Positions 6,425 through 43,708 are shown, counted from the first letter of the stretch. The stretch: 64,000 nucleotides of DNA from Patescibacteria group bacterium (GCA_040756075.1 JBFLZX010000001.1:28787-92786); one strand, 5' to 3'. Numbers and translations: made by a program. The notes: generated from the letters alone by a model not told the origin.

Positions 6425-6467
6425 TAAATTTTTTATTACCCACAGACAGAAATTTTTAATTAATAAA

Positions 6468-13769: not shown

Positions 13770-13782
13770 AAGATATTTGTAA

Positions 13783-26201: not shown

Positions 26202-27269
26202 ATGTTTAAATTTAACAAAACAGTAGAAATTGATGGCGTGAAAATTGGTAGCGGACAACCTTGTTACATAGTAGCTGATGTTAGCGCTAATCACAATTCA
26301 GATTTTAAAACTGCAAAAAGATTTATAAGGTTAGCCAAAGACATAGGTCTAAATGCAATTAAATTTCAAACATACACAGTTGAAAAGTATCTTTCAAAAA
26401 AAATTAAGCGGGAAGACGGATATCATTTTAATAAATCTTTTCAAAAAGCAAAGAAATATGAATTACCTTATGAATGGCATCAAGAATTATTTGATTATGC
26501 TAAGGATTTAGGGGTTACAATTTTTTCTACTATTGATGATATCGATACCATTGATTTTTTAAATAAATTAAATACGCCAGCCTTTAAGGTGTCTTCTCCC
26601 GATTTAAATTTTTTACCAATGATAGAAGAGGCTGCCAAGACTCTTAAGCCACTTATTTTATCAACAGGCATAGGAGATATATCTAGAATTAAAGAGGCAA
26701 TTGAATCGGTAGCTTCCTACGGGAATGATCAGTTGATACTATTGCATTGTGTTTCTATGTACCCCTCGCATTTTTCGGAAATGAATATTCGCTGCATAAC
26801 TAACTTACAGGATACTTTTGGTCTACCTGTAGGGTTATCTGACCATACAGCGGCCAGCCAAGATCCTTATTCTGTAGCTTTGGGAGCTGTGGCTTTGGGT
26901 GCAAATATGATAGAAAAACATATTACATTTAGCAGATCCCAAGATGGCCCGGATCACATATTTTCTATGGAACCCGATGAATTTTCCAAATTAGTTACTT
27001 ATATAAGGAATCTTGAAGAATCGTTGGGTAATGGAAGGAAGTGTCCTGTCTCCAGAGAAATTAAAGTGAGCATAGAGATAACAAAGAGTATCCATACAAC
27101 AAGAGATATAAGAGCTGGAGAAATAATCAAGGAGTCAGATCTGAGAATATTAAGACCAGGTTACGGAATTGAACCTAAATATCTAGGAGATGTTATAGGT
27201 ATGAAAGCAAAAGTTGATATAAAAGATTCAGAGGCGCTAGAGTGGAATTTATTAGAGAAAAATAAATAA
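26202..27269 (+). CDS. Nonulosonic acid synthase (NeuB/PseI/LegI/SpsE family), PEP-dependent
   Basis: The NeuB-family N-terminal barrel (GSGQPCYIVADVSANHN...AIKFQTY) is followed by a C-terminal SAF/antifreeze-like domain. Confidence 0.75.
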   Translation: MFKFNKTVEIDGVKIGSGQPCYIVADVSANHNSDFKTAKRFIRLAKDIGLNAIKFQTYTVEKYLSKKIKREDGYHFNKSFQKAKKYELPYEWHQELFDYAKDLGVTIFSTIDDIDTIDFLNKLNTPAFKVSSPDLNFLPMIEEAAKTLKPLILSTGIGDISRIKEAIESVASYGNDQLILLHCVSMYPSHFSEMNIRCITNLQDTFGLPVGLSDHTAASQDPYSVALGAVALGANMIEKHITFSRSQDGPDHIFSMEPDEFSKLVTYIRNLEESLGNGRKCPVSREIKVSIEITKSIHTTRDIRAGEIIKESDLRILRPGYGIEPKYLGDVIGMKAKVDIKDSEALEWNLLEKNK

Positions 27270-28060
27270 TGAATATTAAAGTAAATAGAATAGGCTGTAT
27301 TATTCAAGCACGAATGAATTCACATAGGCTTTTTGGTAAGGTATTGGTAAAAATTTGCGGGAAATCTATATTAGAGCACATTATTGAACGAATAAAAGAA
27401 TCGAAATATATTCAAGAAATTATTATTGCAACTTCTTCTTCTGGTATAAATGACCCAATAAGAGACCTCGGCAATAAAATTAATATACCTGTTTTTAGCG
27501 GCAGCGAGGACGATGTATTAAGTAGATATATAGAGGTTAGTAAAACATATAATTTTAGAATTATAGTTCGGGTTACAGCGGATGATCCGCTTATTGACAT
27601 ACAAGAAGCGGATAAGATGATAAAAATACTTGAAGAAAAAAAGCTAGACTATGTAACAAATTCAGATATCAGCTTGGATGATTATAATACAGAACTTCCA
27701 GCCGGGTTCCAGGTGGAAGTTTTATCCAGCGATGCTCTATTAAGCTTGGAAGATAAAGATCTGACACAATTGCACAGAGAACATGTAACTCTTTATATCG
27801 AGCAATACGCAGAGAAATATAATATTAGATTTATTAAACCGCGAGAGAACATACGTTACAAGGGATTACGTTTAACAGTAGATACGCCAGAAGATCTAGG
27901 ATTAATGAATAAGATATACCTTGAGTTATATAAAGGTAGGCCTATTCTTAATGAAAAAGTTGTAGAGTTAATTAAAAAGAATCCTAGCTTATCTTTATTA
28001 AACAGTTCTATAAAAACAAATTACAGTTATTTAGACGGAATAAGGGTTAAAAAATTATGA
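27269..28060 (+). CDS. Cytidylyltransferase, SpsF/PseF-like (CMP-nonulosonic acid synthetase family)
   Basis: GCIIQARMNSHRLFGKVL in a GT-A-like nucleotidyltransferase fold. It is the classic SpsE-SpsF neighbour of the NeuB-like gene. Confidence 0.6.
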   Translation: MNIKVNRIGCIIQARMNSHRLFGKVLVKICGKSILEHIIERIKESKYIQEIIIATSSSGINDPIRDLGNKINIPVFSGSEDDVLSRYIEVSKTYNFRIIVRVTADDPLIDIQEADKMIKILEEKKLDYVTNSDISLDDYNTELPAGFQVEVLSSDALLSLEDKDLTQLHREHVTLYIEQYAEKYNIRFIKPRENIRYKGLRLTVDTPEDLGLMNKIYLELYKGRPILNEKVVELIKKNPSLSLLNSSIKTNYSYLDGIRVKKL

Positions 28061-29508
28061 TCGATTGTCTTCTGATATATCCTAATCCTACAAAGGATAG
28101 TCCTAAAAAAGGCGTAGCTTTAGGTATCTTTTACTGCGGAGCAATGCTTGAGAAGAGCGGTCTTAGTGTAGAGTATTTTGATTCGCGTTTTGATAGTAAT
28201 GAAAAATTGAGAAAAATTATTGATCGCAGAGTGCTATGTGTCGGAATATCTTCTATGACCGGTAATCAACTAAGAGAAGCAAAAGAGTTTCTTAAATTTA
28301 TAAAGAATGAGGATGCATCTATTTTTACTATAATGGGCGGTGTTCATCCTTCAATTTTACCTCTTGAGACATTAAGTGATGAATTAGTTGATTTTGTAGT
28401 AATCGGAGAGGGAGAGTTTGTTTTAGTAGATTTGATTCGTCAACTAAAAGGCGATAGACGATTATCGGAAGTCGAAAGTCTTTGTTGGAAAGATGGCAGA
28501 AAATTAATTAAGAATAAAAGGGCTCCATTTATAGATTTAAAAGATTTACCATCCCCATTAACTAAGAAGACAGAAAAGTATTATGTTATATCTGCAAAGA
28601 CAAATAATTTAATTCATCCAACAAGCAGATCTTGTCCGGGTTTTTGCGGGTTTTGTTATAACACTGTAGTTAATAAGAGTCAATGGCGTTCTATGCCTGT
28701 TATGAAATGGGCAAAAGAGTTTAACGAAATGGTAAATTTAGCAAGGTTCTCCCATATGTTTACCGGCGATGATAATATTGGTAGAGATAAAGAGCGTATT
28801 AAAGAAATAGGAGATGTATTTATGGCCAGAGGTGTTACCTGGCATACGAATATTAGACCAGAATATTTAGATGAGGAGTTGATAGGGATCCTAGAGAGGG
28901 GTGGGTGTACTAGTTTGTTATTAGGTTATGAATCTGGTTGTAATAGGATATTGAATACAATAATAAAAAAAGGTTTACCTAATGGTGTTTTAGATTTACG
29001 AAGATGTGCCGAACTCATTGGTAGAAGTAAAATTAATGCGCTATATAGCTTTATGAGCAATCTTCCTACCGAAACCTGGGGTGAATTAAAGGAAAGTATG
29101 GATTTAGCAGATTATATAAAAAAAGTGGATAAAAAATGCAGAATTAGTTTTTATGTTTATGGTCCATATCCCGGTACGCCGATGTATCATATGGCTTTAA
29201 GGCAAGGCTTTAGAGAGCCTAGAAGTATAGAAGAGTGGGGAACTATTTGTTTGACTTACGCCGCAAATGCCTTAGTTGAAAATTTGCATTATATAGCTTC
29301 ATTAAATTTTAGGGGAGGCAAAGGCGATAATACTTCTATTAATTTTCCCGGTTTAAAAAGATTACTTTTATTGCCTTTTGAGTTATCGGCAAAATTAAGA
29401 TGGAAATTAAGATTTTTTAGGCTGTTCAATCTAGAAAAACGAATCGTAAAATACCTTTTTGGCTGGGCAGCAGCACGTATAGATAGATTGCATAAATATA
29501 ATATTTAA
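28057..29508 (+). CDS. B12-binding radical SAM protein
   Basis: N-terminal B12-binding-like domain. Radical SAM motif SRSCPGFCGFCYN. Confidence 0.7.
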   Translation: MIDCLLIYPNPTKDSPKKGVALGIFYCGAMLEKSGLSVEYFDSRFDSNEKLRKIIDRRVLCVGISSMTGNQLREAKEFLKFIKNEDASIFTIMGGVHPSILPLETLSDELVDFVVIGEGEFVLVDLIRQLKGDRRLSEVESLCWKDGRKLIKNKRAPFIDLKDLPSPLTKKTEKYYVISAKTNNLIHPTSRSCPGFCGFCYNTVVNKSQWRSMPVMKWAKEFNEMVNLARFSHMFTGDDNIGRDKERIKEIGDVFMARGVTWHTNIRPEYLDEELIGILERGGCTSLLLGYESGCNRILNTIIKKGLPNGVLDLRRCAELIGRSKINALYSFMSNLPTETWGELKESMDLADYIKKVDKKCRISFYVYGPYPGTPMYHMALRQGFREPRSIEEWGTICLTYAANALVENLHYIASLNFRGGKGDNTSINFPGLKRLLLLPFELSAKLRWKLRFFRLFNLEKRIVKYLFGWAAARIDRLHKYNI

Positions 29509-29515
29509 TATAAAA

Positions 29516-31051
29516 ATGACAAATACAGTTTTAGTCAGAGTAGATAGTAACTATCATGTAGGTATGGGGCATATTATGAGATGTGTTGCTTTAGCGCATG
29601 AGTTCAAACGGAGAGGAATAAAGCCTACTTTTCTAATTAAGAATTATAAAGAAGCTAAATTTATTCTAGATAAAAATTCTATGGATTATCTTTGTTTACC
29701 TAAAATAATCAGTATGGAAAAAGAAGTAGAATTTATTAATCAGTCTGCCAAAGATGCTAATACTAGAATCTTAGCAATAGATTTGAAAAAAATACCAGCT
29801 TTATACATTCAAGCTTTAAAAAATAAAGGATTTTTTCTTATATGTTTTTCTGATTTTGAAAAAATAAGGAAGAGCGCCGCGGACCTTATAATAGCCGGAG
29901 AATCTTATTATAAAAATAAAGAGGAAGGCATAGTTCGTGGTTTAGATTATATAATCACCGGAAGAACATCAATAAGATATAATAAGCGAAAAAAAATAAT
30001 TAATAAGGTTAAAAGGATTCTTTTAAGTTTTGGCGGGGGAGATAATGGCGGGGTATTTATAAAGGTCTTAAGGGCCTTAGAGAAATCTAGACATAGATTA
30101 GAATTCAATTTAATTGTTGGCGCAACATTTAAACGCCATTCTTTGCTAAAAAAAATTATTAATAAGACAAAATTAAATTTAAATATTATTGAAAATACTA
30201 ATTCAATGGCTAAATATTTATATAATACGGATGTTGCTTTTATATCTGGAGGGGCAACAAAATATGAAGCTGCGTGCATAGGGACACCATCTTTTATCAT
30301 AGCACAAGATAACAGGCAGTTTAAATATTCAAGAAGGTTTTCTGAATTGACAAAGGCAGCTATATGTTTAGGTAGGCATAATAAATTGAAAGTTAGGAAT
30401 ATTCATAAACAGGTCGACCCCCTTTTTTGTAATAAACAATTACTTAGAAAGATGAGTGATGCCGGTAAGCTTAGCGTCGATGGATTAGGTGCTAGGCGAA
30501 TAGTAGATAGGATATTATATTTACAATCTAAAATATTATATCCAAGCATCTCTCTGCGATTGGCGACAAGAAAAGACCTGCCATTATTATTGAAGTGGTT
30601 CAATGATCCAGAGTTAAGGCAATTTTCTATTACTTCCAAGAAAATAACATTAACTCAACATAGAAAATGGTTTACTAGTTTAAATAAAAGAAAAAATAAA
30701 ATATTTGCCGTTGATTTGAATGGGCAACATATAGGCACAGCGGCATTAAGGAATATTGACTCAAAAAATAGACAGGCTGAGTTAGCTATAGAGATAGGTG
30801 AAAAAGAGTATTGGGGTAAAGGTTACGGTACATTAATCATAAAACAACTTTTAGAATACGGATTCAATAAGCTTAATTTAAGATCGGTTTACCTTTCAGT
30901 TTTTTCCAAAAACAACAGAGCGGTTAATTTATATAAGAAGATCGGTTTTAGTCTTAATCAAAGTGAAAAAAAAATTATAAATAAAGACGGTAAGCGCATA
31001 GAGCTATCTCGAATGAATTTGGACAATAAAGAATATTTTAGGCGGAAATGA
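29516..31051 (+). CDS. PseG-like UDP-sugar hydrolase (GT-B fold) fused to a GNAT N-acetyltransferase (PseH-like)
   Basis: N-terminus: VRVDSNYHVGMGHIMRCVALAHEF, which matches the PseG G-x-G-H-x-x-R signature. C-terminal roughly 170 aa: GNAT fold (ATRKDLPLLLKWFNDPELRQF ... YWGKGYG). Confidence 0.65.
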   Translation: MTNTVLVRVDSNYHVGMGHIMRCVALAHEFKRRGIKPTFLIKNYKEAKFILDKNSMDYLCLPKIISMEKEVEFINQSAKDANTRILAIDLKKIPALYIQALKNKGFFLICFSDFEKIRKSAADLIIAGESYYKNKEEGIVRGLDYIITGRTSIRYNKRKKIINKVKRILLSFGGGDNGGVFIKVLRALEKSRHRLEFNLIVGATFKRHSLLKKIINKTKLNLNIIENTNSMAKYLYNTDVAFISGGATKYEAACIGTPSFIIAQDNRQFKYSRRFSELTKAAICLGRHNKLKVRNIHKQVDPLFCNKQLLRKMSDAGKLSVDGLGARRIVDRILYLQSKILYPSISLRLATRKDLPLLLKWFNDPELRQFSITSKKITLTQHRKWFTSLNKRKNKIFAVDLNGQHIGTAALRNIDSKNRQAELAIEIGEKEYWGKGYGTLIIKQLLEYGFNKLNLRSVYLSVFSKNNRAVNLYKKIGFSLNQSEKKIINKDGKRIELSRMNLDNKEYFRRK

Positions 31052-31785
31052 ATATGCATATATTATCAGCCCATCAACCAGCTTATTTGCCATGGCTAGG
31101 CTTATTTCATAAAATTGCTATTTCTGATACATTTGTAGTTTTTGATACCGTGCAATATTTAAACGAAGACTTCAATCATAGAAATAGAATCAAGATTCCA
31201 TTTGGTTCAATGTGGCTTACTGTTCCTGTTGTAACTAAGGGAAGATTTCCTTTATTATTAAGGGATGCCCAAATAGACAACTCTAAACCTTGGCAAAAAA
31301 AACATCTAAAATCTATTATGCAAAGATACAGCAAGGCCCCTTATTTTAAAGACTATATAAGATTTTTCGAAGAGCTTTATAGTAAAAAATGGGATATGTT
31401 AGTTCCTCTATGCGACACAATATTTAAGTATTTATTAAAAGAGATGAGAATTCATACAAAAATTATTTATGCCCATCAATATAAATTTCAAGGCAAGAAG
31501 TCGGATTTAATTCTTGATATGTGTAAACAACTAGATGCGGATCTATTTATTTTTGGCGAAATGGGGCAGGATTATGCCAAAAAGGAAGAGTATCATAAAA
31601 ATAGAATTATTCCTTATTTTCAAAAATATAATCATCCCATATATCCACAACTATATGGAAAGTTTATTCCTAATTTATCGACTATTGATTTACTTTTTAA
31701 TTGTGGAAGTAGGAGCTTAGAAATCATCATGCAAGGAAATATAACAAGAGAAGATTTAATGAAATTTTATACTACAGAAAGATAA
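31048..31785 (+). CDS. WbqC-like family protein (function unknown, found in O-antigen/nonulosonic acid loci)
   Basis: HILSAHQPAYLPWLGLFHKIAISDTFVVFDTVQY matches the WbqC-like signature. Confidence 0.6.
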   Translation: MNMHILSAHQPAYLPWLGLFHKIAISDTFVVFDTVQYLNEDFNHRNRIKIPFGSMWLTVPVVTKGRFPLLLRDAQIDNSKPWQKKHLKSIMQRYSKAPYFKDYIRFFEELYSKKWDMLVPLCDTIFKYLLKEMRIHTKIIYAHQYKFQGKKSDLILDMCKQLDADLFIFGEMGQDYAKKEEYHKNRIIPYFQKYNHPIYPQLYGKFIPNLSTIDLLFNCGSRSLEIIMQGNITREDLMKFYTTER

Positions 31786-31795
31786 GGAGAAACCG

Positions 31796-32488
31796 ATGGC
31801 TATTAATAATAGAATACTAGTTGTTGTAGCGCATCCAGATGATGAAGCGCTTGGCTGTGGAGGTGTTATTTCTAAGCATGCCGAAAAGGGAGATGATGTT
31901 TTTATCATATTTTTAGGGGAGGGGTTGGCAGCTAGGTACAAGGATTGCAAGACTCCATCAAAAAGAATATTAAATCTTCATAGAATGCAATCAAGAAAAG
32001 CAGCAGATATACTTGGAGCAAAGAGAGTATATTTTTTTAATCTGCCCGATAACGCTTTTGATTCTGTTAGGCTTTTAAAAATTATCAAGATAATAGAAAA
32101 AATAAAAAGAGACGTAAAACCGAACATTATTTATACACATTACTGCGGAGATTTAAATATCGATCATAGAATAACTCATCAGGCCGTTCTTACTGCTTCA
32201 AGACCTTTGGTTTCTGAAACCGTTAAAAATATTTATACCTTTGAAGTATTATCTTCTACTGAATGGGCCAATAATCAAAACGAAAGCTTTAAGCCAAACG
32301 TTTATATAGATATTTCGAGCCAACTGAGTAAAAAAATAAAGGCCTGCGAATGCTATAAAACAGAGATTAAAGAATGGCCTCATCCAAGAAGTAGGAAAGG
32401 GATTGAGATTTTAGCGCATAAAAGAGGCTTAGAGGTTAGTTTAAAACATGCCGAAGCATTTATGTTGATACGGAGTATAGGAGAATAA
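31796..32488 (+). CDS. PIG-L/LmbE-family N-acetyl-sugar deacetylase
   Basis: VVAHPDDEALGCGG zinc-binding motif. Confidence 0.75.
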   Translation: MAINNRILVVVAHPDDEALGCGGVISKHAEKGDDVFIIFLGEGLAARYKDCKTPSKRILNLHRMQSRKAADILGAKRVYFFNLPDNAFDSVRLLKIIKIIEKIKRDVKPNIIYTHYCGDLNIDHRITHQAVLTASRPLVSETVKNIYTFEVLSSTEWANNQNESFKPNVYIDISSQLSKKIKACECYKTEIKEWPHPRSRKGIEILAHKRGLEVSLKHAEAFMLIRSIGE

Positions 32489-32491
32489 TAA

Positions 32492-34330
32492 GTGAATTTA
32501 ATAGTTGTTCCGCCTAAGGTAAATGATTGTATTATTTCGGAGAAAATCAAGGCCCAAGAAAGTTATGTTTTTTTGGCTGATTTTCCTGGACAAATGAAAA
32601 ATTTTAAGATAAGAGGCCTAAATATTTTAAATAAAAGTTATTTTTTATCACAGGCCGAAATACGTTTAGTTGAAAAAAAAGCTGAATTTTTTGCTCAAAA
32701 TTGGTTTAAACAAGGCAAGTGCCAGGATCTATTAAGCTATAGAAATATAAACATAGGAGATGCATGCTATTTATTAATACTGAATTACATAATAAAAGTA
32801 TTAAGAGCAATTTTAATTTCAGAAAAATTAATAAATGATAATTTAGATAAAAAGTTTTTTTTAATAGACGATAAAGGATTTTGGTCAAAAACTTTCCTAG
32901 CAGTTATAAAGAATAAATATATAGAAGCCGAAACATTAGTTAATGGAATAAAAGTTTTTAAAAAAACAATTAATAAAGAAGGCATTAAATCTATCATAAA
33001 AAAAACAATTTTAAGGTTTACAAGATTAAACGTTGTTAATGCTCCTAATTTTAAAAAGGAGAAGATTATATTTTCTTGTGCTTTGAGATTCATAAAAGAT
33101 ATTTGGCAGGAATTAAGCGGCGATTACTCTATGTATTATCTGCGCCCGATATTTTCGTTCGATGCTCATAGAATTGAAAAAGATCACAGAGGTTTATATA
33201 TAAAACATATTCTACCAGAATATTTCATTAGTAATAGAGACAAGAACGAAATTGCTAAGAATGTTGATATAGGGAAAATAGCACAGGGTTTAAGAAGCTA
33301 TTTTTCGCAAAACCAATTTTTTAATTTCAATGAATATGATTTATGGCCTATTATAAATGACGATTTAATTCAGATAATTCAAGAGAATCTTATAGAATGT
33401 ATGGCCCGGATAAATAGTTTTGAATGTATGTTTAGTAGGTTAAATCCGATGCTGATTATTGTTGATGAAGACGATTGTCCTTTTAATAGGGTATTAATAA
33501 GATCTGCGAATCTAAAAAATATTAAAAGTATTCAATTAATCCATGGACTAACAGGAAATAGCTTATCAGAATCCGCAACTATTTCTACAAAAGTTGCTGT
33601 TTCTGGAAATGTTGCTTATAATAGGCTTATTGAGTTTGGCGTAGAAAAAAACATCATCGAAATTATTGGATCTCCTCATTATGAACAAAAATTAAAACAT
33701 AGCAATAAGAATAAGATAAAAAAGACAATATGTGATAAATTAAGATTTTTGTCAGATCCTGTTTTAGTAACGTTGGCATTACAACAGTTTTATAGTGATG
33801 ATAGAGTTACTCTCGCGCGTTTTCTAGAAGCAGATTTTATGGAGAAGATGCTACGGATCAGTATTGCAACATCAAAAAAAATTAAAAACATTAAATTGAT
33901 TATAAAATTACACCCCGGAGAAATACATGAATGGTTTGTTGATGATATTATTCGTTCTGAAAAAGCTAGGCATTTGGTAGCAGTTGTTAAGGAATACGAT
34001 ATCATGGATCTTTTATCTGCAAGTACGCTTGTTTTGACTTCCGGATCAACCGTATATACAGAATGTTTACTTACGGCTACGCCGGTATTATTATTTGATG
34101 ATAGCAGGGAAAGATCGTTAGATTTTTTAAGTACAGATTACTTGGATATTAATAATATGCATTTATCTGTTAGGCAGATTCAGAATATGATAGAAAGTTG
34201 TGAATTAAGAAATGACAAGTTATTATTCCAAAAGCAAGAATTAAAAACGCATTTTTTGAATAATAACGATGGCGCGCTTTATAATTTTAAACAATTAGTG
34301 CGGAATATGAGTAATCGGTCTTATGATTAA
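32492..34330 (+). CDS. TagB/TagF/KpsC-family GT-B transferase (CDP-glycerol glycerophosphotransferase or capsule beta-Kdo-transferase-like)
   Basis: The C-terminal block KLHPGE ... LTSGSTVYTECLLTATPVLLFDD resembles the K-x-HP ... TDYSS ... P-I-I-F signature of this family. GTG start. Confidence 0.4.
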   Translation: MNLIVVPPKVNDCIISEKIKAQESYVFLADFPGQMKNFKIRGLNILNKSYFLSQAEIRLVEKKAEFFAQNWFKQGKCQDLLSYRNINIGDACYLLILNYIIKVLRAILISEKLINDNLDKKFFLIDDKGFWSKTFLAVIKNKYIEAETLVNGIKVFKKTINKEGIKSIIKKTILRFTRLNVVNAPNFKKEKIIFSCALRFIKDIWQELSGDYSMYYLRPIFSFDAHRIEKDHRGLYIKHILPEYFISNRDKNEIAKNVDIGKIAQGLRSYFSQNQFFNFNEYDLWPIINDDLIQIIQENLIECMARINSFECMFSRLNPMLIIVDEDDCPFNRVLIRSANLKNIKSIQLIHGLTGNSLSESATISTKVAVSGNVAYNRLIEFGVEKNIIEIIGSPHYEQKLKHSNKNKIKKTICDKLRFLSDPVLVTLALQQFYSDDRVTLARFLEADFMEKMLRISIATSKKIKNIKLIIKLHPGEIHEWFVDDIIRSEKARHLVAVVKEYDIMDLLSASTLVLTSGSTVYTECLLTATPVLLFDDSRERSLDFLSTDYLDINNMHLSVRQIQNMIESCELRNDKLLFQKQELKTHFLNNNDGALYNFKQLVRNMSNRSYD

Positions 34331-34344
34331 CGCAGGGGGGCGTT

Positions 34345-35127
34345 ATGAAAATAAAAGAACTTTATTCATTGAAAGATAAAACAGCCATTATTACGGGCGG
34401 AGGCGGTAAAGTTGGTAAGTTTATAGTACGGGGCTTATGGGAGGCTGGTGCAAAATGCATTATTTTAAGTAGAAAAAAAGCGAATGCCTCTGATTTATTA
34501 AAAGAGGCAAAACTAAATGGTTACTCTTTATCTTTTTTAGCCTGTGATATTACAAAAGAGAAAGACCTTATAAAAATTAGTAAAAAATTAGCAAAAAATA
34601 AAAATATTAAAATATTAATTAATAATGCAGTTTATACTATAAGCAAAAATATTGAAAGCTTAACATATCAAGATTGGCAGAAAACATATGAGGTTAATCT
34701 TTTAGGGGGATTTCTTTGTGTGAAACATATCGGTCAATTAATTAAAAAAAACGGAGGCGGGAGCATAATTAACATAGGTTCTCATTATGGTTGTATTTCT
34801 TGTGATGAACGCATATATCGTAATAAGAATATAGCAAGCTCTTTATCATATGCAACTACAAAATCTGGAATTTTAAATTTTACACGTTATATCGCTACGC
34901 ACTGGGCAAAATATAAGATTAGGTGCAATACAATTTCTCCAGGAGGCTTTCAGGACAAAAATAATAACGATTATTATTTTAGAAGAGAGTATAAAAAAAG
35001 AGTTCCTCTTGGCAGAATGGCTTTCGAAGATGATATCAAGGGCGTAGCAGTATTTTTAGCTTCGGAAGCCTCGCAATATATTACTGGGCAAAATATTATT
35101 GTTGATGGCGGATGGACTGCTTGGTAA
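34345..35127 (+). CDS. Short-chain dehydrogenase/reductase (classical SDR)
   Basis: TGGGGKVGKF cofactor motif and a YxxxK catalytic pair (YATTK). Confidence 0.7.
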   Translation: MKIKELYSLKDKTAIITGGGGKVGKFIVRGLWEAGAKCIILSRKKANASDLLKEAKLNGYSLSFLACDITKEKDLIKISKKLAKNKNIKILINNAVYTISKNIESLTYQDWQKTYEVNLLGGFLCVKHIGQLIKKNGGGSIINIGSHYGCISCDERIYRNKNIASSLSYATTKSGILNFTRYIATHWAKYKIRCNTISPGGFQDKNNNDYYFRREYKKRVPLGRMAFEDDIKGVAVFLASEASQYITGQNIIVDGGWTAW

Positions 35128-35153
35128 AAATAGCTTAATAGGTAAGGATCTTT

Positions 35154-36098
35154 ATGAGATATAGAATTTTAGGTAAAACAGGTTTTAAAATTTCAGAAAT
35201 TTCTTTAGGGACTGTTGAGCTTGCACAAGATTACGGATTGTCTAAAGCTCCATCACGAAAAGACGCAGTAAATCTTATAAAATATGCTTTAGATAATGGG
35301 ATTAATTTTATTGATACTGCCAGGGCATATGATCCTGCGGAAGATATTATTGGTGAAGCTATCAGAGATAGGAAGGCTAATCGTCCCATAGTAGCTACTA
35401 AATTAGAATATTTTTTTAATGATGAATTAGGCGAGAAAGAACTGTTTAAGTTTTATAAAAAATCTATAGAGACTTCTTTGGATAGGCTAGGGGTAGATAT
35501 TATTGATATCCTAAAGCTGCATCAGACCGATAAAAATACTTTAAAGATTCCTGGATTACTTGAAGTATTAAGAAAGTTAAAAAAAGACCAAAGGATTAAG
35601 TTTTTAGGTGTGTCTATTTCTGATGTAAGTACTGCTAGAGAACTTATTAACAGTGATATTTTCGATGTAATACAAGTTGCTTTTAATGTATTCGATCAAA
35701 GATTGGAAAAGGAAATTATATATGCATCTTTAGAAAAAAAAATCGGTGTTATTGTGCGTTCAGCTTTTATGAGAGGAATCATTCCTTGTCCATTTGAGAA
35801 AGTTCCTTCTTTGCTTGTTTCTTTGATTCCTTACAAAGAACGCTTAAATTCGATATCAAATAGTATTAATGTTGAACCATATGAGGCCGCTTTATGTTTT
35901 CCTCTTACATTAAATGAGGTATCTACAACTATCGTAGGGATGGAAAATATAAGCTTATTAAGAAAAAATATCGAAGCAGTTAATAAATTCGATATTGTAT
36001 TAAATAATATTTATGAATTTAAAAATATGGCTATAGATAATGAATTTTTAATTACGCCAGCATTATGGGATGCTGCGTCAACAAAGGCTAAGGGATAG
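35154..36098 (+). CDS. Aldo/keto reductase family oxidoreductase
   Basis: YRILGKTGFKISEISLGT N-terminus and the TIM-barrel AKR pattern. Confidence 0.65.
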   Translation: MRYRILGKTGFKISEISLGTVELAQDYGLSKAPSRKDAVNLIKYALDNGINFIDTARAYDPAEDIIGEAIRDRKANRPIVATKLEYFFNDELGEKELFKFYKKSIETSLDRLGVDIIDILKLHQTDKNTLKIPGLLEVLRKLKKDQRIKFLGVSISDVSTARELINSDIFDVIQVAFNVFDQRLEKEIIYASLEKKIGVIVRSAFMRGIIPCPFEKVPSLLVSLIPYKERLNSISNSINVEPYEAALCFPLTLNEVSTTIVGMENISLLRKNIEAVNKFDIVLNNIYEFKNMAIDNEFLITPALWDAASTKAKG

Positions 36099-36105
36099 TT
36101 TTGTT

Positions 36106-37608
36106 ATGGCACATCATATAAAGAAACAAATTATGAAGGATACTGCTAAATTGACATCTGCTCAATACTTTTCTCAGGGATTAGGTTTCGTTACGTCTAT
36201 AATGATTCGTCGTTATTTAGGGCCATACTTTACAGGCATATGGAGTCTTCTGCGGATTATTTTAGATTATTCTGCTTATAATTCTTTGGGTGTAGATAGA
36301 GCCGCAATGTATAAGATACCATTTTTTATCGGACAGAATAAGCAGGAAGAGGTAAGAGAGATACAGAATTGTAGTTTTAGTTTTATGTTTTTAGCTTCAC
36401 TCCTCACAAGCGTATTGCTTGCTATAATTACAACATTTATAAAACATAGGTATCCTATAGAAGTAGTGGTTGGTTTATATGCGCTTTCTATTATTGCAAT
36501 TGTAGAAAAAATCAGCGCTTTTTTAATCTTATTGCCTAAGGCAGAAGGCGATTTTTCTGTTTTAAGTAAAGCCATAATTTTTGATGCCATTCTTAATATT
36601 ACATTAGTATTTTTACTAGTAAGGCCATTTTTTATATACGGTCTTTATACAATGATGTTTCTTTCAGCAGTAATAAATGCTGTGTTTGTATATAGCCTTA
36701 TAAAATGTAAGGTAAAATTAATCATAGATACTAAAATAATAAAAGGGCTTATAAAATATGGGTTCCCTATCCTTGGAATATCTCTTTTAACTGTTATATT
36801 AAGAAGCGTGGATAGGATTATTATTGCAAAGATGCTTGGCGTGACTTTTGTGGGATATTTTAGCCTAGGAATTATGACAAGAAATTATGCAGAAATTTTT
36901 GCGAGTTTTTCAACGGTATTAAGGCCAAGGATGATGCAGGCCTATGGAAAAGAAGAAAAAATAGAACACATGGAGAAGTTTGTGATTGGTTCATGTGAAA
37001 TTATAGCATTTACCTTGCCGATTATTTTAAGTATTATATATTTTTTAGGGCCGGTATTAGTCAGGCTGCTGTTGCCTAAGTTTATCCCTGGTATTATAGT
37101 TATGCAAATTCTTCTTCTAGATTCTTTTTTCCACTCAACTTATATACAGTCTCAACAATTTATAATTGCAATAGGCAAACAAAAAAAGATAATGGCTATA
37201 ATAACAGGAGTGATTATTTTAAATGGTATATTAGATTACTTTCTTATCAAAATGGGGCTAGGGATTGCAGGAGTTGCTGCGAGCACAGCATTTAGTTCAT
37301 TTTTGAGCTTTATATTAGTACAAATTGTTTCAATGAGATATTTTATGAATAATAAAGATATTATCTTTTTTATCATAAGGGTATTGGTTCCTGTATTTTA
37401 TATAAGCTTAGTATCAATTTTTATAGGGAATATAATTTTAGTGGCTAATCAGGTAATTGATTTATTATTAAAAATTGTTATAGTTCTTACTTCATCTTTG
37501 CCGTTGTTATTCTACTTAAACAGAAGGATTAATTTTATTCCAGTTTTAGTTTCTCTGATAAAAGGAAAATTTGGGATTAAAGACGATAATTACACAGATC
37601 TAATATAG
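36106..37608 (+). CDS. Wzx-like oligosaccharide flippase (MOP/polysaccharide biosynthesis protein family)
   Basis: About 12 TM helices. The N-terminus (KLTSAQYFSQGLGFVTSIMIRRYLGP) is typical of Wzx/PST flippases. The start is taken at the internal ATG 36106. Confidence 0.65.
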   Translation: MAHHIKKQIMKDTAKLTSAQYFSQGLGFVTSIMIRRYLGPYFTGIWSLLRIILDYSAYNSLGVDRAAMYKIPFFIGQNKQEEVREIQNCSFSFMFLASLLTSVLLAIITTFIKHRYPIEVVVGLYALSIIAIVEKISAFLILLPKAEGDFSVLSKAIIFDAILNITLVFLLVRPFFIYGLYTMMFLSAVINAVFVYSLIKCKVKLIIDTKIIKGLIKYGFPILGISLLTVILRSVDRIIIAKMLGVTFVGYFSLGIMTRNYAEIFASFSTVLRPRMMQAYGKEEKIEHMEKFVIGSCEIIAFTLPIILSIIYFLGPVLVRLLLPKFIPGIIVMQILLLDSFFHSTYIQSQQFIIAIGKQKKIMAIITGVIILNGILDYFLIKMGLGIAGVAASTAFSSFLSFILVQIVSMRYFMNNKDIIFFIIRVLVPVFYISLVSIFIGNIILVANQVIDLLLKIVIVLTSSLPLLFYLNRRINFIPVLVSLIKGKFGIKDDNYTDLI

Positions 37609-37669
37609 TTTTTATCCAGTTGTTGAAATATTAAGAATAATAATAGTGTTTGGAAAGGAGTTTTGGATT

Positions 37670-38395
37670 ATGAATTGCGTTCTTATAATGGCTAAAGAGG
37701 GAAGCAGCCTTGCCGGAAAAAATATATGGAATATAAGGGGTAGGACATTGCTTAACTGGCTTATAGATGACGCAAGGAAGTCATCTTTAGTTAATAAGGT
37801 ATTCGTTTCAACGAATGGTAAAGAAACAGCACAGATAGCAGAGAGGGCTAATGTTGAGTTAATTATTAGGAGTGACGATCTTGCAAAAAATGAGAATTTT
37901 CCGCAAGCTGTAGATCATGCTATAAATTATATTAAACAGAAATATGACGATCTTCAAATTATAACTATATCTCAATGCGTCGTTCCTTTTAGGGCCCCAG
38001 ATATATTTGATAGGTGTATTTCTTTTCTTCTGAAAAACAAAAATTATGATTCGGTCGTAACAATTAGAAAGACAGCAGATATTCCGGAAACGATCATGAA
38101 AGAAGAGAATGGATATTTGATGCCATATTTTTCGGAGCATCATGCTAAGTCTTTTTTATCCCGTCAGGATAGCCAGGCCTACGGAATAGATCATGTTATA
38201 GAATGTTTCCGTTATTCTTCATGGTTAAATAGAGAAAAAGGCATAAAACCTTGGTCATATCTTGGCAGAAAAATAAAGGGGATAGAGCAAGATTACCATA
38301 ATCCTAACTGTTTTGTAGATGTGCATACGCTAGATGACATAAGGTGGCTAGAATTTTTAGTCGATAATATTGGTTTTGAAGGAATGAAAAAATAA
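37670..38395 (+). CDS. Acylneuraminate (nonulosonate) cytidylyltransferase, NeuA-like
   Basis: MNCVLIMAKEGSSLAGKNIWNIRGRTLLNWLI corresponds to the IPARGGSKG..KN...GKPLI block. GGAAAGGAG RBS. Confidence 0.65.
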   Translation: MNCVLIMAKEGSSLAGKNIWNIRGRTLLNWLIDDARKSSLVNKVFVSTNGKETAQIAERANVELIIRSDDLAKNENFPQAVDHAINYIKQKYDDLQIITISQCVVPFRAPDIFDRCISFLLKNKNYDSVVTIRKTADIPETIMKEENGYLMPYFSEHHAKSFLSRQDSQAYGIDHVIECFRYSSWLNREKGIKPWSYLGRKIKGIEQDYHNPNCFVDVHTLDDIRWLEFLVDNIGFEGMKK

Positions 38396-38420
38396 ACGAA
38401 ACCACATCGAAGGAGAAAAA

Positions 38421-39176
38421 ATGAATCTAAAAAAAAGATTGAAATTAAAGAAGATAACAGTAGGTTCTTGGATAACCATTGGGGATTCTTCTGTGGCAGA
38501 GATTATGGCGAAATCTGATTTTGATTGGCTTGTGGTAGATATGGAGCATAGTGCTATAGAATTAGATGCTGCACAAAAACTTATACGGATTATTGAGCTT
38601 GCTGGTTGCATACCATTGGTTAGGGTAGGAGAGAATAATCCAGCGCTTATAAAACGTGTTATGGATGCAGGTGCGCATGGCGTAGTGGTTCCGATGGTTA
38701 ATAGCAAAGAAGAAGCCATAAGGGCTGTTAGAGCAGTTAAATACCCCCCCGGCGGTATAAGAGGCGTAGGGCTTGCGCGTGCACAAGGCTATGGTATGAG
38801 CTTCGAAAGCTATAAAAATTGGCTTAATCAGAATAGCATAGTAATTGTTCAGATAGAACATATAAATGCGGTTAAGAACCTTCAGCAGATATTAGACGTA
38901 GAGGGAGTGGATGGTTTTATAGTAGGGCCTTATGACCTCTCTGGTTCAATCGGAAAACCAGGAGAATTTAACGATCCCGAAGTAAAGGCTGCTTTAGAAA
39001 GAATAAAAATTGTGGCGGAGCAATTACATAAGCCTTCAGGAATCCACGTTATTCCTCCTGATTATAGAGAGGTAAATAAAAGGATAAAAGAAGGCTATAG
39101 TTTTATTGCATTTAGCCTTGATACATTATTTTTGGGGAAAAGCTGCAGAAATGGGCTTTCTAAAATCACAAGATAA
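38421..39176 (+). CDS. HpcH/HpaI-family class II pyruvate-dependent aldolase
   Basis: VGSWITIGDSSVAEIMAKSDFDWLVVDMEHS, VRVGENNP and MVNSKEEA...KYPPGGIRG blocks are characteristic of HpcH/HpaI/YfaU aldolases. Confidence 0.7.
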   Translation: MNLKKRLKLKKITVGSWITIGDSSVAEIMAKSDFDWLVVDMEHSAIELDAAQKLIRIIELAGCIPLVRVGENNPALIKRVMDAGAHGVVVPMVNSKEEAIRAVRAVKYPPGGIRGVGLARAQGYGMSFESYKNWLNQNSIVIVQIEHINAVKNLQQILDVEGVDGFIVGPYDLSGSIGKPGEFNDPEVKAALERIKIVAEQLHKPSGIHVIPPDYREVNKRIKEGYSFIAFSLDTLFLGKSCRNGLSKITR

Positions 39177-39185
39177 AAGGAGAAA

Positions 39186-39968
39186 ATGAATATGAAAATA
39201 GTCGGTTTTATACCTGCTCGTATGGGTTCAAGTCGTTTTCCAGGTAAGCCGCTAGCAGATATTTTAGGAAAAGCGATGATAGAACATGTTTATTATCGTA
39301 GTAAGCTATCAGATAAGCTAGACGACCTTTATATTGCAACGCCTGATAAAGAAATAGAGGACTATTGTCTTAGCAGGGATATAAAAGTTGTAATGACCAG
39401 CCCAGTGCATGAACGCGCTACCGATAGGACTGCCGAGGCAACGCAGAAAATAGAGAATAAAACGAATGAGAAAATAGACATTGTGATACTAATACAAGGC
39501 GATGAGCCTTTGTTATATCCTGAAATGATTAATCTTGCGTTGAAACCACTTATTAATGACAGTAATATTTTGACTTCTAATCTTATGTCGCCATTAAAAT
39601 CAATTGAGGAACAGGAAGATCCCAATGAGGTAAAGGTAGTAGTAGATAAAGATAATTTTGCCCTTTATTTTTCAAGAGAGCCTATACCATCAAGGAAAAA
39701 AGGCGCTAAGAATTTTGTTACAATGAAGCAGGTATGTATTATGCCTTGGAGAAGAGATTTTTTATTTAAATACACCAGCCTTAAGCAGACGCCGCTTGAG
39801 ATAATTGAATCGGTGGATACGCTTAGATGCATTGAGAATGGCTTTAAAGTAAAGATGGTTCCTTGCGATTTTAATACCTATAGTGTTGATACAATTAATG
39901 ATTTGAATAAGGTAAGAGAAATGATGAAGAAAGATAGTTTATTTTTAAAATATAGTAATATAAGGTAA
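39186..39968 (+). CDS. 3-deoxy-manno-octulosonate cytidylyltransferase-like (KdsB family)
   Basis: KIVGFIPARMGSSRFPGKPLADILGKAMIEHV matches the KdsB N-terminal signature. AAAGGAG RBS. Confidence 0.7.
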   Translation: MNMKIVGFIPARMGSSRFPGKPLADILGKAMIEHVYYRSKLSDKLDDLYIATPDKEIEDYCLSRDIKVVMTSPVHERATDRTAEATQKIENKTNEKIDIVILIQGDEPLLYPEMINLALKPLINDSNILTSNLMSPLKSIEEQEDPNEVKVVVDKDNFALYFSREPIPSRKKGAKNFVTMKQVCIMPWRRDFLFKYTSLKQTPLEIIESVDTLRCIENGFKVKMVPCDFNTYSVDTINDLNKVREMMKKDSLFLKYSNIR

Positions 39969-43702: not shown

Positions 43703-43708
43703 CATATT

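Follow-up and report, generated by a model that had tools for sequence, protein, structure and literature searches.

Two proposed supply lines for CMP-activated 2-keto sugar acids and three cytidylyltransferase lineages in a glycan locus of a Patescibacteria bacterium

Introduction

How many CMP-activated acidic sugars can be made by a locus that holds three cytidylyltransferase genes and a single NeuB-type synthase gene? This question is raised by a 64,000-nt stretch from a Patescibacteria (CPR) bacterium (GCA_040756075.1, JBFLZX010000001.1:28787-92786), analysed here at its full length and called the window. The initial annotation proposed up to three such sugars, two of the enzymes drawing on substrates made without NeuB, and as a whole this interpretation is partly supported. 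We consider it somewhat likelier to be right than wrong that the glycan locus of about 52 kb supplies CMP-activated 2-keto sugar acids along two separate lines, with cytidylyltransferase A in the first and C in the second, and that B represents a third lineage attached to the second.

Results and Discussion

Three intact cytidylyltransferases of ancient divergence

The three cytidylyltransferase ORFs reported to coexist are all present on the + strand, at 27269-28060 (A), 37670-38395 (B) and 39186/39192-39968 (C). Each lies above the gathering score of Pfam PF02348 CTP_transf_3 (22.6 bits), A with 113.9 bits, B with 46.2 bits and C (39186-39968) with 168.2 bits, and a search of all six-frame ORFs of the window found no fourth. 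For B, the ATG at 37670 is a better start than that of the longest ORF (GTG 37646) because AAGGAG stands 7 nt upstream of it. The NCBI start of C is 39192, two codons downstream of 39186.

None of the three is a pseudogene: A, B and C are intact, and a syntenic relative, L102 (a 41.9-kb contig), retains all three genes free of stops. The dN/dS values against L102, for which dS is saturated, were 0.15 (A), 0.05 (B) and 0.07 (C), and the genes are under purifying selection. By BLASTP, A and C share 33% identity confined to the N-terminal 113 residues, and B gave no significant match to either. The genes are ancient paralogues rather than recent duplicates, and the arrangement of three PF02348 genes in 12.7 kb, kept in L102, is not due to chance. 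They belong to three separate CMP-ulosonate-synthetase lineages, as had been claimed: A is SpsF-like, B has the NeuA fold and C is KdsB-like.

The claim of a single NeuB-type synthase also held, since a phmmer search with NeuB, covering the ORFs of the whole window in six frames, matched 26202-27269 only. Canonical PseF is absent (TIGR03584 26.5, 42.7 and 27.4 bits for A, B and C; cutoff 205.7), and Pfam scans of all + strand ORFs of at least 100 aa in the window detected no KdsA/DAHP synthase, KdsD/SIS isomerase or Capsule_synth domain.

Cytidylyltransferase A and the pseudaminic-acid-type module

The genes around A and those leading to B are as follows.

23535-24719, + strand: DegT/PseC-like aminotransferase, nonulosonic acid (NulO) module (Pfam DegT_DnrJ_EryC1, 396 bits)
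24716-26185, + strand: B12-binding radical SAM enzyme, gene immediately 5' of NeuB (Pfam B12-binding and Radical_SAM)
26202-27269, + strand: PEP-dependent NeuB-type synthase, nearest PseI (Pfam NeuB, 254 bits, and SAF)
27269-28060, + strand: cytidylyltransferase A, SpsF-like, proposed CMP-NulO synthetase (CTP_transf_3)
28057-29508, + strand: B12-binding radical SAM enzyme, gene immediately 3' of A (Pfam, NCBIfam)
29516-31051, + strand: PseG-PseH fusion (nucleotidase and N-acetyltransferase) of a Pse-type pathway (NCBIfam)
31048-32488, + strand: WbqC-like protein and PIG-L deacetylase, NulO tailoring (Pfam WbqC 240 bits, PIG-L 96.7 bits)
34345-36098, + strand: SDR and aldo/keto reductase, AKR (Pfam)
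36070-37608, + strand: Wzx-type flippase (Pfam Polysacc_synt, Polysacc_synt_3)

With NCBIfam models, the synthase scored 318.5 bits for PseI (cutoff 340) and 298 bits for NeuB (cutoff 400), and the fusion protein 126 bits for PseG (residues 4-270) and 93.8 bits for PseH (cutoff 93.1; residues 351-500). Together with the aminotransferase and the tailoring enzymes, these proteins would constitute a pseudaminic-acid-type NulO pathway at about 21.5-32.5 kb, in which the NeuB/PseI-like synthase, translationally coupled to A, would provide the acid that A converts into CMP-nonulosonate. The NeuB stop and the start of A overlap by 1 nt in both the window and L102, and this overlap within a Pse-type pathway makes A the likely CMP-nonulosonate synthetase. 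The top PDB match of A is 6oew, a Leptospira 'cytidylyltransferase' (121 bits), and A-type genes lie among NulO genes in four further loci (L005, L094, L021 and L070), directly downstream of an AKR gene in the first three.

The nearest known counterpart of this module is the sps (legionaminic acid) operon of B. subtilis. Proteins named SpsF are about 40% identical to A, which likewise adjoins a NeuB homologue (cf. SpsE) and a PseG-like gene (cf. SpsG). Without spsF, B. subtilis remains able to make legionaminic acid but is unable to place it on the spore surface (PMC7439481). The window differs in that its pathway seems to be Pse-type rather than Leg-type and adds B12-radical SAM, WbqC and PIG-L tailoring genes; the role of SpsF has genetic support only.

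The aldolase cassette around C

C stands in a second group of genes.

38421-39176, + strand: HpcH/HpaI class II pyruvate aldolase, proposed second keto-acid sugar synthase (Pfam, 120 bits)
39192-39968, + strand: cytidylyltransferase C, KdsB-like (CTP_transf_3, 168 bits)
39973-41478, + strand: B12-binding radical SAM enzyme (Pfam)
41480-42391, + strand: PGDH-like D-2-hydroxyacid dehydrogenase (Pfam 2-Hacid_dh_C, 185 bits)
42384-43052, + strand: 'putative cyclase', an arylformamidase-like hydrolase, accessory gene (Pfam Cyclase, 70 bits)
43049-43702, + strand: HAD-IA phosphatase (Pfam HAD_2)
43709-44614, + strand: extended SDR, epimerase/dehydratase family (Pfam Epimerase, 147 bits)

The HpcH aldolase had been named as a substrate source other than NeuB, and it is a well-founded candidate. 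We compared 48 C-seeded genome loci from many phyla, each 15 kb or longer, with flanks of up to 10 kb, so that genes scored absent may sit farther out. HpcH lies within 3 kb of the C-type gene in 33 of the 48, the dehydrogenase within 5 kb also in 33, and one or both within 5 kb in 41. A HAD phosphatase occurs within 10 kb in 24 loci, orthologues of the SDR in 26 and the putative cyclase in eight; only 12 have NeuB within 10 kb. Nitrosomonas and Nitrosospira hold a compact C-HpcH-dehydrogenase-SDR-HAD operon without NeuB. The dehydrogenase, phosphatase and SDR (41480-44614) belong to the same conserved cassette as C and HpcH. The radical SAM protein at 39973, a paralogue of that at 24716 (252 bits between them), has orthologues (280-390 bits) within or near the cassettes of L006, L011, L016, L077, L093 and L095. 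This aldolase-based cassette is widespread and apparently undescribed, and databases label it as activation of Kdo, an LPS sugar.

The aldolase retains catalytic and metal residues, its H43, R68, E146 and D172 aligning to H45, R70, E149 and D175 of HpaI, and it matches cassette orthologues with 250-364 bits as against 157 bits for HpaI. It shares family and catalytic His, Arg, Glu and Asp with HpaI, YfaU, GarL and the hydroxyketoacid aldolases; the known members catabolise aromatic compounds and sugar acids, whereas the window subfamily is found in glycan biosynthesis beside a cytidylyltransferase. The dehydrogenase, whose start is likely ATG 41480 rather than TTG 41399 from its sequence and the L102 gene, scored 243 bits for PGDH and 215 bits for glyoxylate reductase, both below the NCBIfam cutoffs, as is the top match of the SDR (LegB-like, 111 bits).

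Beyond the family assignments, intact reading frames, retained residues and recurrent gene neighbourhoods that the data show, we infer for this arrangement at 37.7-46 kb how the enzymes feed one another, what the aldolase accepts and which sugar, of which chain length, results. The aldolase would join pyruvate, or hydroxypyruvate supplied by the dehydrogenase and the HAD phosphatase, to an aldehyde or aldose (phosphate) acceptor, and the resulting 4-hydroxy-2-keto acid sugar may be tailored by the SDR, the B12-radical SAM enzyme and methyltransferases before C turns it into a CMP-sugar. In eight of the 48 loci, the dehydrogenase is paired with C and HpcH is absent, so the keto acid might come from aldonic acid oxidation instead of aldol condensation.

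C, a KdsB-like member of a separate clade

C passes the NCBI KdsB thresholds (PRK13368 292 bits, cutoff 255; TIGR00466 155.4 bits, cutoff 155.2), its top PDB matches are KdsB/KpsU (138 bits, 202 bits with a profile), and it shares their fold, family and catalytic residues, with R12, R17, K21, Q104, D106 and D235 retained (E. coli KdsB R10, R15, K19, Q98, D100, R157 and D235). The order of condensing enzyme, phosphatase and cytidylyltransferase is also common to both, the aldolase, HAD protein and C paralleling KdsA-KdsC-KdsB. C might be the true CMP-Kdo synthetase of its NCBI annotation, with HpcH replacing KdsA (arabinose-5-phosphate plus pyruvate), HAD replacing KdsC, and Kdo or a very close analogue entering a capsule-like glycan.

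The Kdo-contact positions argue otherwise. In C, H181, Y185, E210 and Q211 (E. coli KdsB numbering) are exchanged for Q, M, D and T, and throughout its clade for Q, I/M, D and M/T; the sequences of E. coli KdsB and of the N. meningitidis enzyme that served as references were checked against published residue numbers and HMMER-printed segments. E. coli KdsB binds the C5-OH of Kdo through Y185 and Q98 and is inactive on 5-deoxy-Kdo (PMC12199768). Of 85 homologues that carry Gln in place of H181, 78 lie within 5 kb of HpcH, the dehydrogenase or both, compared with none of the five with canonical H-Y-E-Q. The cassette further differs from the Kdo pathway in its pyruvate-dependent aldolase (KdsA is PEP-dependent), in its additional PGDH-like dehydrogenase and SDR, and in the absence of KdsD/SIS isomerase and KdsA from the window. 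The clade of C occurs, among other hosts, in Methanoregula, Methanoperedens, Hadarchaeum, Woesearchaeota, Hodarchaeales and CPR bacteria, and archaea and CPR bacteria have no LPS. C thus belongs to a clade separate from KdsB and tied to HpcH and 2-hydroxyacid dehydrogenase, not to LPS. Kdo-like acids had been suggested as substrates; it is unlikely that C, with its contact residues exchanged, acts on Kdo itself, and we regard the Kdo route as improbable.

B, a NeuA-fold clade with changed catalytic residues

37670-38395, + strand: cytidylyltransferase B, NeuA fold, changed catalytic residues (CTP_transf_3)

B is named 'hypothetical protein' at NCBI and has 94 homologues at 55-78% identity. At 50% identity this tight, unnamed clade collapses into a single cluster out of 1.84 billion representatives, and the match that follows scores 131 bits. 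An AF2 model (pLDDT 78) predicts a full-length CMP-ulosonate synthetase fold, and Foldseek matched it to CMP-Neu5Ac, CMP-Pse and CMP-Kdn synthetases (TM 0.67-0.80). Equivalents of Lys21/Asn22, Gln104 and Asp209 of the NeuA/PseF/LegF/CMP-Kdn synthetases are kept, but Lys16 is hydrophobic or deleted and Arg12 and Asp211 are invariantly replaced by Lys (K9) and His (H219; both in 24 of 24 members).

Both Arg12 and Asp211 matter in N. meningitidis CMP-Neu5Ac synthetase, in which D211A lowers kcat 15,000-fold (PMC2901514). Lacking them, B may be something other than an ordinary synthetase, and it could be a CMP-sugar-binding or regulatory paralogue that presents, for example, its partner's CMP-sugar to tailoring enzymes such as the dehydrogenase or a sulfotransferase, leaving two donors only. 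Consistent with this, B shares its locus with a second cytidylyltransferase in 14 of the 17 loci seeded by B (the remaining three being contigs no longer than 4.5 kb), and in L028 a B-like domain fused to the dehydrogenase directly follows C. We consider this role unlikely, since the Asp215 equivalent is kept as well and His is a competent metal ligand. The nearest relatives of B carry the same Lys and D-x-H/N signature and are fused to, or adjoin, enzymes that form keto acids. One arrangement is a Ribul_P_3_epim + DAHP_synth_2 + cytidylyltransferase + RraA-like fusion; in fusions of this wider clade, the sole cytidylyltransferase domain stands beside a DAHP-synthase-like domain, which fits an active enzyme. 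In another arrangement, an RraA-like gene, the cytidylyltransferase and a SIS-CBS isomerase gene are consecutive.

B is nearer than A to PseF and NeuA in sequence and fold, and nearest of the three (TIGR03584 42.7 bits), its top structural matches including the Aeromonas CMP-Pse5Ac7Ac synthetase, so B could be the NulO enzyme. B rather than A would then be the CMP-pseudaminate-type synthetase, A would have another role, C alone would use the aldolase product, and two or three donors would be made. The NulO operons of L005 and L094 hold B and A without HpcH or C within 10 kb, and the recurrent AKR-A adjacency suits such a role for A. We find this doubtful, because A is translationally coupled to NeuB in the window and L102, the B. 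subtilis genetics suit a CMP-NulO synthetase, and no fetched locus has NeuB within 5 kb of B, whose relatives are tied instead to DAHP-synthase-like, RraA-like, HpcH and 2-hydroxyacid dehydrogenase genes.

In a further difference from the NeuA/PseF/LegF/CMP-Kdn synthetases, B has as neighbours a TagB-like protein of about 660 aa, a HAD phosphatase and the aldolase cassette rather than NeuB. A HAD gene lies within 1.5 kb in 10 of the 17 loci, often as the immediate neighbour, and HAD or HpcH comes after B in most. This B-HAD coupling recalls the route to Kdn and sialic acid in Bacteroides and eukaryotes, which runs through a 9-phosphate synthase, a HAD phosphatase and a CMP synthetase; the window differs from that route in its type IA, not KdsC-like, HAD and its lack of a second NeuB-type synthase. 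A HAD-sulfotransferase fusion, which would also suit the paralogue role, directly follows B in L096.

Returning to the two supply lines, the most likely role of B would be to activate a second product or variant of the aldolase cassette, giving a third donor. Its predicted fold, the HAD or HpcH genes after it, the companion cytidylyltransferases, its nearest relatives and the L028 fusion count in favour of this role. One aldolase for two cytidylyltransferases, B and C, speaks against this explanation. Of the earlier proposal of up to three sugars, the production of at least two CMP-activated ulosonic acids is likely and that of a third possible; since B and C share one conserved module having one aldolase, two donors are as likely as three.

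Candidate transferases

32492-34330, + strand: 612-aa candidate CMP-sugar transferase, GT-B/TagB-like C-terminal part (weak Epimerase_2 match)
44595-45953, + strand: TagF-like (Glyphos_transf) protein, candidate transferase with CMP leaving group (Pfam)

Both proteins had been described as KpsC/TagF-like. The description fits 44595, which is TagF-like (Glyphos_transf 27.9 bits, cutoff 22.1), but 32492 has no KpsC (Capsule_synth) signal. Apart from Epimerase_2, the latter matched, weakly, only the NCBIfam models BFO_1060 GT (37.5 bits) and surf_polysacc ('surface carbohydrate biosynthesis', 25.7 bits), both below cutoff, and distantly (E ~1e-6) the ~660-aa family that precedes B in other loci.

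The donors of TagF-like proteins are CDP-alcohols, and genes for such proteins occur within or beside the cassette (44595; a Glyphos_transf gene adjoins C in L003). Given also the PGDH-like dehydrogenase and the HAD phosphatase, the cassette might make no sugar at all, with B and/or C activating a small 3-phosphoglycerate-derived hydroxy acid (such as glycerate or phosphoglycerate), which the TagF-like protein would add as a phosphodiester-linked, teichoic-acid-like substituent. This is very unlikely, since the aldolase with its intact catalytic residues would be left without a role and the phosphatase would consume the phospho-acid substrate. Moreover, no characterised PF02348 enzyme is known to act other than at the anomeric hydroxyl of a 2-keto sugar acid; cytidylyltransferases that activate phosphates come from other families.

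In the favoured two-line explanation, the CMP-sugar made by C would be transferred by the TagF-like or the large GT-B-like protein. TagB-domain proteins of Tannerella forsythia are published candidate NulO transferases, according to work cited in PMC7439481, and the 44595 protein is kept in L102 (655 bits).

Integrity and kinship of the three cytidylyltransferases

When all plus-strand open reading frames (ORFs) of at least 100 aa in the window were scanned with Pfam and NCBIfam models, three genes, here called A, B and C, exceeded the gathering score of 22.6 bits of the cytidylyltransferase family CTP_transf_3 (PF02348), and no fourth cytidylyltransferase was found in the window.

Cytidylyltransferase genes of the window
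27269-28060, + strand: A, 263 aa, CTP_transf_3 at 113.9 bits
37670-38395, + strand: B, 241 aa, CTP_transf_3 at 46.2 bits
39186 or 39192 to 39968, + strand: C, 258-260 aa, CTP_transf_3 at 168.2 bits

The initial annotation had proposed that three such genes coexist with a single NeuB-type synthase; both points were confirmed, as was the family placement by HMM, and the window holds one NeuB-type gene. The alternative that the genes are pseudogenes was ruled out by the absence of stop codons and by dN/dS values of 0.15 (A), 0.05 (B) and 0.07 (C), at saturated dS, against a syntenic relative (L102, a 41.9-kb contig) in which all three genes are open and the gene order is identical from NeuB through the GT4 gene; the PF02348 matches likewise speak against a non-CMP family. 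The start codon of B (ATG 37670) has AAGGAG 7 nt upstream. As A and C share 33% identity across 113 residues and B gave no significant BLASTP match to A or C, the proteins are barely alignable to one another, which rules out recent duplication.

The R...K nucleotide-binding motif and the two acidic metal ligands are all kept in C (R12, K21, D106, D235), and A has the R...K motif together with 'ADDP' and 'VDTPED'. In B, Arg12 is replaced by Lys and Asp211 by His, with K17, N18, D217 and D223 kept. Each of the three is predicted to work like a CMP-ulosonate synthetase, converting CTP and a 2-keto sugar acid into CMP-sugar and PPi. All three score below the cutoff of the PseF model TIGR03584 (A 26.5, B 42.7 and C 27.4 bits; cutoff 205.7).

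C is KdsB-like but differs at the Kdo-contact positions

C reaches 292.4 bits on the KdsB subfamily model PRK13368 (cutoff 255) and passes the KdsB equivalog model TIGR00466 at the border (155.4 versus 155.2), which is why NCBI names it CMP-Kdo synthetase. Compared with E. coli KdsB, the C clade keeps R10, R15, K19, Q98, D100, R157 and D235. By contrast, the Kdo-contact residues H181, Y185, E210 and Q211 are replaced in the window protein by Q182, M186, D211 and T212, and the clade has Gln, Ile or Met, Asp and Met at these positions in 20 of 20 members. Modelling on PDB 3K8D has the Kdo C5-OH held by Q98 and Y185, and E. coli KdsB is inactive on 5-deoxy-Kdo (PMC12199768); PMC3149649 does not give the Kdo-contact residues.

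Gln occupies the H181 position in 85 of 92 C homologues, and in 78 of these 85 an HpcH aldolase and/or a PGDH-like dehydrogenase lies within 5 kb; both genes are absent within 5 kb of all five homologues with the canonical H-Y-E-Q residues. Further, the Pfam and NCBIfam scans of the 64-kb window, which stems from a Patescibacteria MAG, gave no KdsA, KdsD, KdsC, Kdo transferase, or LPS or group 2 capsule context. C is thus predicted to be KdsB-like in mechanism yet lacks the Kdo-specific features, and since both its Kdo-contact residues and its pathway context differ from those of KdsB, classing it as KdsB is not appropriate. C is unlikely to activate Kdo itself and probably activates a non-Kdo keto-acid sugar made by the surrounding cassette, as judged from its sequence and neighbourhood.

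The HpcH aldolase cassette across genomes

In the window, B and C lie in a cassette (37.7-46 kb) with an HpcH aldolase, a radical SAM enzyme, a PGDH-like dehydrogenase, a HAD phosphatase and an SDR. Homologues of C at 55-65% identity were found in Omnitrophota, KSB1, Thermodesulfovibrionia, Parcubacteria, Desulfovibrio, Nitrosomonas, Nitrosospira, SAR86, Prochlorococcus and Leptospira, and among archaea in Methanoregula, Methanoperedens, Hadarchaeum, Woesearchaeota and Hodarchaeales. Eighty genome loci were fetched and their six-frame ORFs searched with the window proteins, and the counts refer to the 48 that span 15 kb or more. Of these, 33 carry an HpcH orthologue no further than 3 kb from C, and within 10 kb the dehydrogenase is present in 34, the SDR in 26, the HAD in 24 and NeuB in just 12. 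These counts support the proposal that the neighbouring HpcH aldolase is a candidate source of a substrate made without NeuB. In Nitrosomonas and Nitrosospira, a compact C-HpcH-dehydrogenase-SDR-HAD operon adjoins a GT2 gene and nonulosonic acid (NulO) genes are absent; the order in Desulfovibrio is HpcH-SDR-C-HAD. We also considered C as a CMP-NulO synthetase, since in some loci NeuB is close to C, the sole cytidylyltransferase within range, and rejected this as a general explanation given the low NeuB count and the compact operons that lack NeuB.

Concerning the aldolase (38421-39176; 120 bits in Pfam), His45 and Arg70 of HpaI are established as catalytic and Glu149 and Asp175 as metal ligands. 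These four residues align (4b5s/2v5j) with H43, R68, E146 and D172 of the window protein. The cassette HpcH proteins form a subfamily of their own, with 250-364 bits among cassettes versus 157 bits to HpaI. A triose, tetrose or pentose phosphate could serve as acceptor, the HAD then removing the phosphate, or instead a free deoxy-sugar could; the dehydrogenase and phosphatase could supply a hydroxypyruvate donor, yielding a 3-hydroxylated ulosonic acid. Within 5 kb of C, 25 of the 48 loci have both HpcH and dehydrogenase, 8 HpcH alone, 8 the dehydrogenase alone and 7 neither, five of these last being among the six lowest-scoring C homologues. The loci with a dehydrogenase and no HpcH leave oxidation of an aldonic acid as an alternative source of the keto acid.

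No HpcH-cytidylyltransferase fusion occurs among the fetched loci, where the only fusions seen were cytidylyltransferase-dehydrogenase (L028) and pyruvate kinase (PK)-ATP sulfurylase. For the window dehydrogenase, the longest ORF begins at TTG 41399 and shares 80 nt with the radical SAM gene in front of it; ATG 41480 is the likely start because it lies one base past the radical SAM stop and gives a length matching that of the L102 gene (302 aa). Full-text literature searches, with a minority of subscription-journal papers covered, gave no description of the cassette, and the T. forsythia Pse paper contains no genes related to it.

B forms a clade within the NeuA fold

B is called hypothetical by NCBI. 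We detected 94 homologues at 55-78% identity, mainly from Omnitrophota and unbinned metagenomes, and among 1.84 billion representatives the family is one 50%-identity cluster (344 bits), with the next match at 131 bits. Along its entire length, the AlphaFold model of B (pLDDT 78) aligns with CMP-Neu5Ac, CMP-Pse and CMP-Kdn synthetases at TM 0.67-0.80. B shares the NeuA fold with N. meningitidis CMP-Neu5Ac synthetase but lacks its Arg12 and Asp211, which are Lys and His in 24 of 24 aligned members. Lys16 is hydrophobic in these members, or deleted (window and L102). Every one of the 24 retains Lys21, Asn22, Asp209 and Asp215; at the Gln104 position, 21 have Gln and 3 have Glu. As D211A reduces the kcat of the Neisseria enzyme by a factor of 15,000 (PMC2901514), the His substitution points to a remodelled metal site in B. 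An invariant R165-Q166 is present in B, although MAFFT aligned the N. meningitidis Arg165/Gln166 elsewhere, an ambiguous placement. At 37694-37723 (residues 9-18), the window and L102 proteins read KEGS-SLAGKN against the family consensus KEGSIGLPGKN, so that one nucleotide-binding-loop residue is missing and Ala replaces a conserved Pro.

In most of 17 loci seeded with B, B is followed by a HAD phosphatase or HpcH gene. A second cytidylyltransferase is present in 14 of the 17, the other three being contigs of at most 4.5 kb. This partner is mostly C; it is A in L005 and L094, and L091, L096 and L097 have a NeuA-like gene instead. Directly 5' of B, in four of the four loci checked (L005, L006, L007, L096), is a well-conserved family of ~660-aa proteins (430-840 bits mutually) that weakly resemble Glyphos_transf and Epimerase_2 and are remotely linked to the 612-aa protein of the window. 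The metagenome locus L096 also has a HAD-sulfotransferase fusion directly after B, an APS kinase-radical SAM/SPASM fusion, and an upstream PEP mutase with an NTP_transf_3 gene (4412-5272, 10728-12602, 12599-14167).

The nearest outside relatives of B share the Lys and D-x-H/N signature and are linked to keto-acid-forming enzymes. Some are fusions of ~1,000-1,150 aa joining Ribul_P_3_epim, DAHP_synth_2, cytidylyltransferase and RraA-like domains (L103 8001-11450; proteins P0338, P0339 and P0347), which may be a one-protein route to a CMP-3-deoxy-ulosonic acid. One of them adjoins a gene for a Golgi-type nucleotide-sugar transporter (Nuc_sug_transp), and its DNA is for this reason probably eukaryotic or from a giant virus. 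Elsewhere an RraA-like gene, a B-like cytidylyltransferase and a SIS-CBS isomerase stand in tandem, and on a Victivallales chromosome (L028 10766-12565) an N-terminal B-like domain is fused to a C-terminal 2-hydroxyacid dehydrogenase, directly 3' of a C-type gene. These neighbours and relatives place B functionally with the aldolase/dehydrogenase module and not with NeuB. B represents a new lineage among NeuA-fold enzymes, and it may either make a third donor or have a non-synthetase function.

A candidate route to a CMP-ulosonic acid

Sialic, pseudaminic and legionaminic acids and Kdo are examples of CMP-activated keto-sugars. Such sugars form the outermost or the innermost units of microbial surface glycans and determine how hosts, phages and immune systems recognise the cell, and all routes to them known to us use PEP-dependent NeuB- or KdsA-type synthases. 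From comparative genomics we tentatively propose, at slightly less than even confidence, that HpcH and the KdsB-like enzyme, with the PGDH-like dehydrogenase, HAD and SDR, would constitute an undescribed pathway, spread over numerous phyla of bacteria and a number of archaeal lineages and mis-annotated as kdsB across databases, to a CMP-ulosonic acid that is neither Kdo nor NeuB-derived, and that a second new lineage of CMP-transferases, clade B with its Lys / Asp-x-His active site, would serve the same module. If this is true, a class II pyruvate aldolase route with its own cytidylyltransferase clade would represent a new class of donor sugar, the widespread 'kdsB' annotation in LPS-less organisms would be corrected, and glycobiologists would have defined genes to express.

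A and the NeuB pathway

The start codon of A overlaps the stop codon of NeuB (26202-27269) in both the window and L102. The NeuB-type protein is nearest to PseI (318.5 bits, cutoff 340), and around it lie genes for a DegT aminotransferase, a PseG-PseH fusion, WbqC and a PIG-L deacetylase; the NeuB/A neighbourhood is a Pse-type pathway without canonical PseF. A has no NCBIfam equivalog match, the best match of known structure is an uncharacterised cytidylyltransferase from Leptospira (6oew, 121 bits), and NCBI names the window copy 'glycosyltransferase family protein'. JGI and NCBI label its homologues (36-46% identity) SpsF or 'cytidylyltransferase domain-containing'. With these SpsF-named homologues, an SpsE-like NeuB directly 5' and the SpsG-like PseG-PseH 1.5 kb 3', A is by prediction a member of the SpsF group. 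A B. subtilis spsF mutant still makes legionaminic acid but is unable to display it, as expected for a CMP-activating step (PMC7439481). From context and homology, we infer that A acts on the NeuB product.

The PseG-PseH fusion has 511 aa (29516-31051, + strand); the L102 gene at the PseG position has merely 341 aa and no Pfam match on record.

Candidate transferases and radical SAM enzymes

The genes at 32492 and 44595 had been described as KpsC/TagF-like transferases. The TagF part held for 44595, which matches Glyphos_transf (PF04464) at 27.9 bits versus 22.1 over residues 298-378 only, the match of its L102 orthologue being weak; 32492 shows only weak similarity to BFO_1060, surf_polysacc and Epimerase_2. 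The KpsC assignment was rejected for both, as neither has a match to Capsule_synth (PF05159, KpsC/KpsS) or a related model in Pfam or NCBIfam. TagF-type and CMP-sugar transferases alike release CMP. For T. forsythia, the published candidates for Pse and Leg transferases are TagB-domain proteins (cited in PMC7439481). CMP release and this precedent make 32492 and 44595 reasonable candidate transferases for the donors discussed here.

B12-binding radical SAM genes of the window (+ strand)
2031-3428: B12-binding radical SAM enzyme
24716-26185: the same type, just 5' of NeuB
28057-29508: the same type
39973-41478: the same type, just 3' of C
49428-50879: the same type

The genes at 24716 and 39973 are paralogues (252 bits), and close homologues recur within HpcH/C cassettes in L003, L051, L006 and L093. 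These enzymes may C-methylate ulosonic acids. For Magnetospirillum, a 2026 preprint describes 'higher-carbon' (C10) ulosonic acids that are linked to CMP and whose genetic origin is unknown, and we found no literature linking B12-radical SAM enzymes with nonulosonic acids.

Glycan context of the locus

The window has a G+C content of ~31% and all substantial ORFs on the plus strand. In the Pfam and NCBIfam scans, ~1-52 kb is one uninterrupted glycan-biosynthesis locus with GT2, GT4 and PMT-like transferases, a sulfate-activation block, the NulO pathway, a Wzx flippase, and the five radical SAM enzymes together with methyltransferases; RtcB and then more sugar genes follow downstream.

Further features of the window (+ strand)
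3490-5007, 6390-8732, 12066-13769, 15320-16993 and 55064-56632: four PMT/PMT_2-like (GT-C) membrane glycosyltransferases and a YfhO-like protein
9889-12069: fusion of an SDR (4,6-dehydratase-like) and a DegT aminotransferase, 726 aa
17165-21385: sulfate-activation block with a sulfatase-like and APS-kinase fusion, ATP sulfurylase, and a pyruvate-kinase barrel without C-terminal domain
52015-53505, 57566-59242 and 62762-63898: RtcB RNA ligase, NodU/CmcH-type carbamoyltransferase, polysaccharide deacetylase, SDR, hexapeptide acyltransferase and UDP-GlcNAc 2-epimerase

The PMT/PMT_2-like and YfhO-like genes point to extramembrane glycosylation of proteins or lipid-linked acceptors, and the genes beyond the main locus may belong to the beginning of a further sugar pathway. 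At ~52 kb, the main locus makes up a big fraction of the genome of an ultrasmall candidate phyla radiation (CPR) bacterium, which points to a cell surface central to epibiotic life. The sulfate-activation block suggests a sulfated glycan, possibly with PEP-driven recycling of ATP for PAPS synthesis. In Omnitrophota relatives (L005 3174-5354; L094 3223-5409), the pyruvate-kinase barrel is fused to PUA_2 and ATP sulfurylase and adjoins APS kinase and sulfotransferase genes, just 5' of B.
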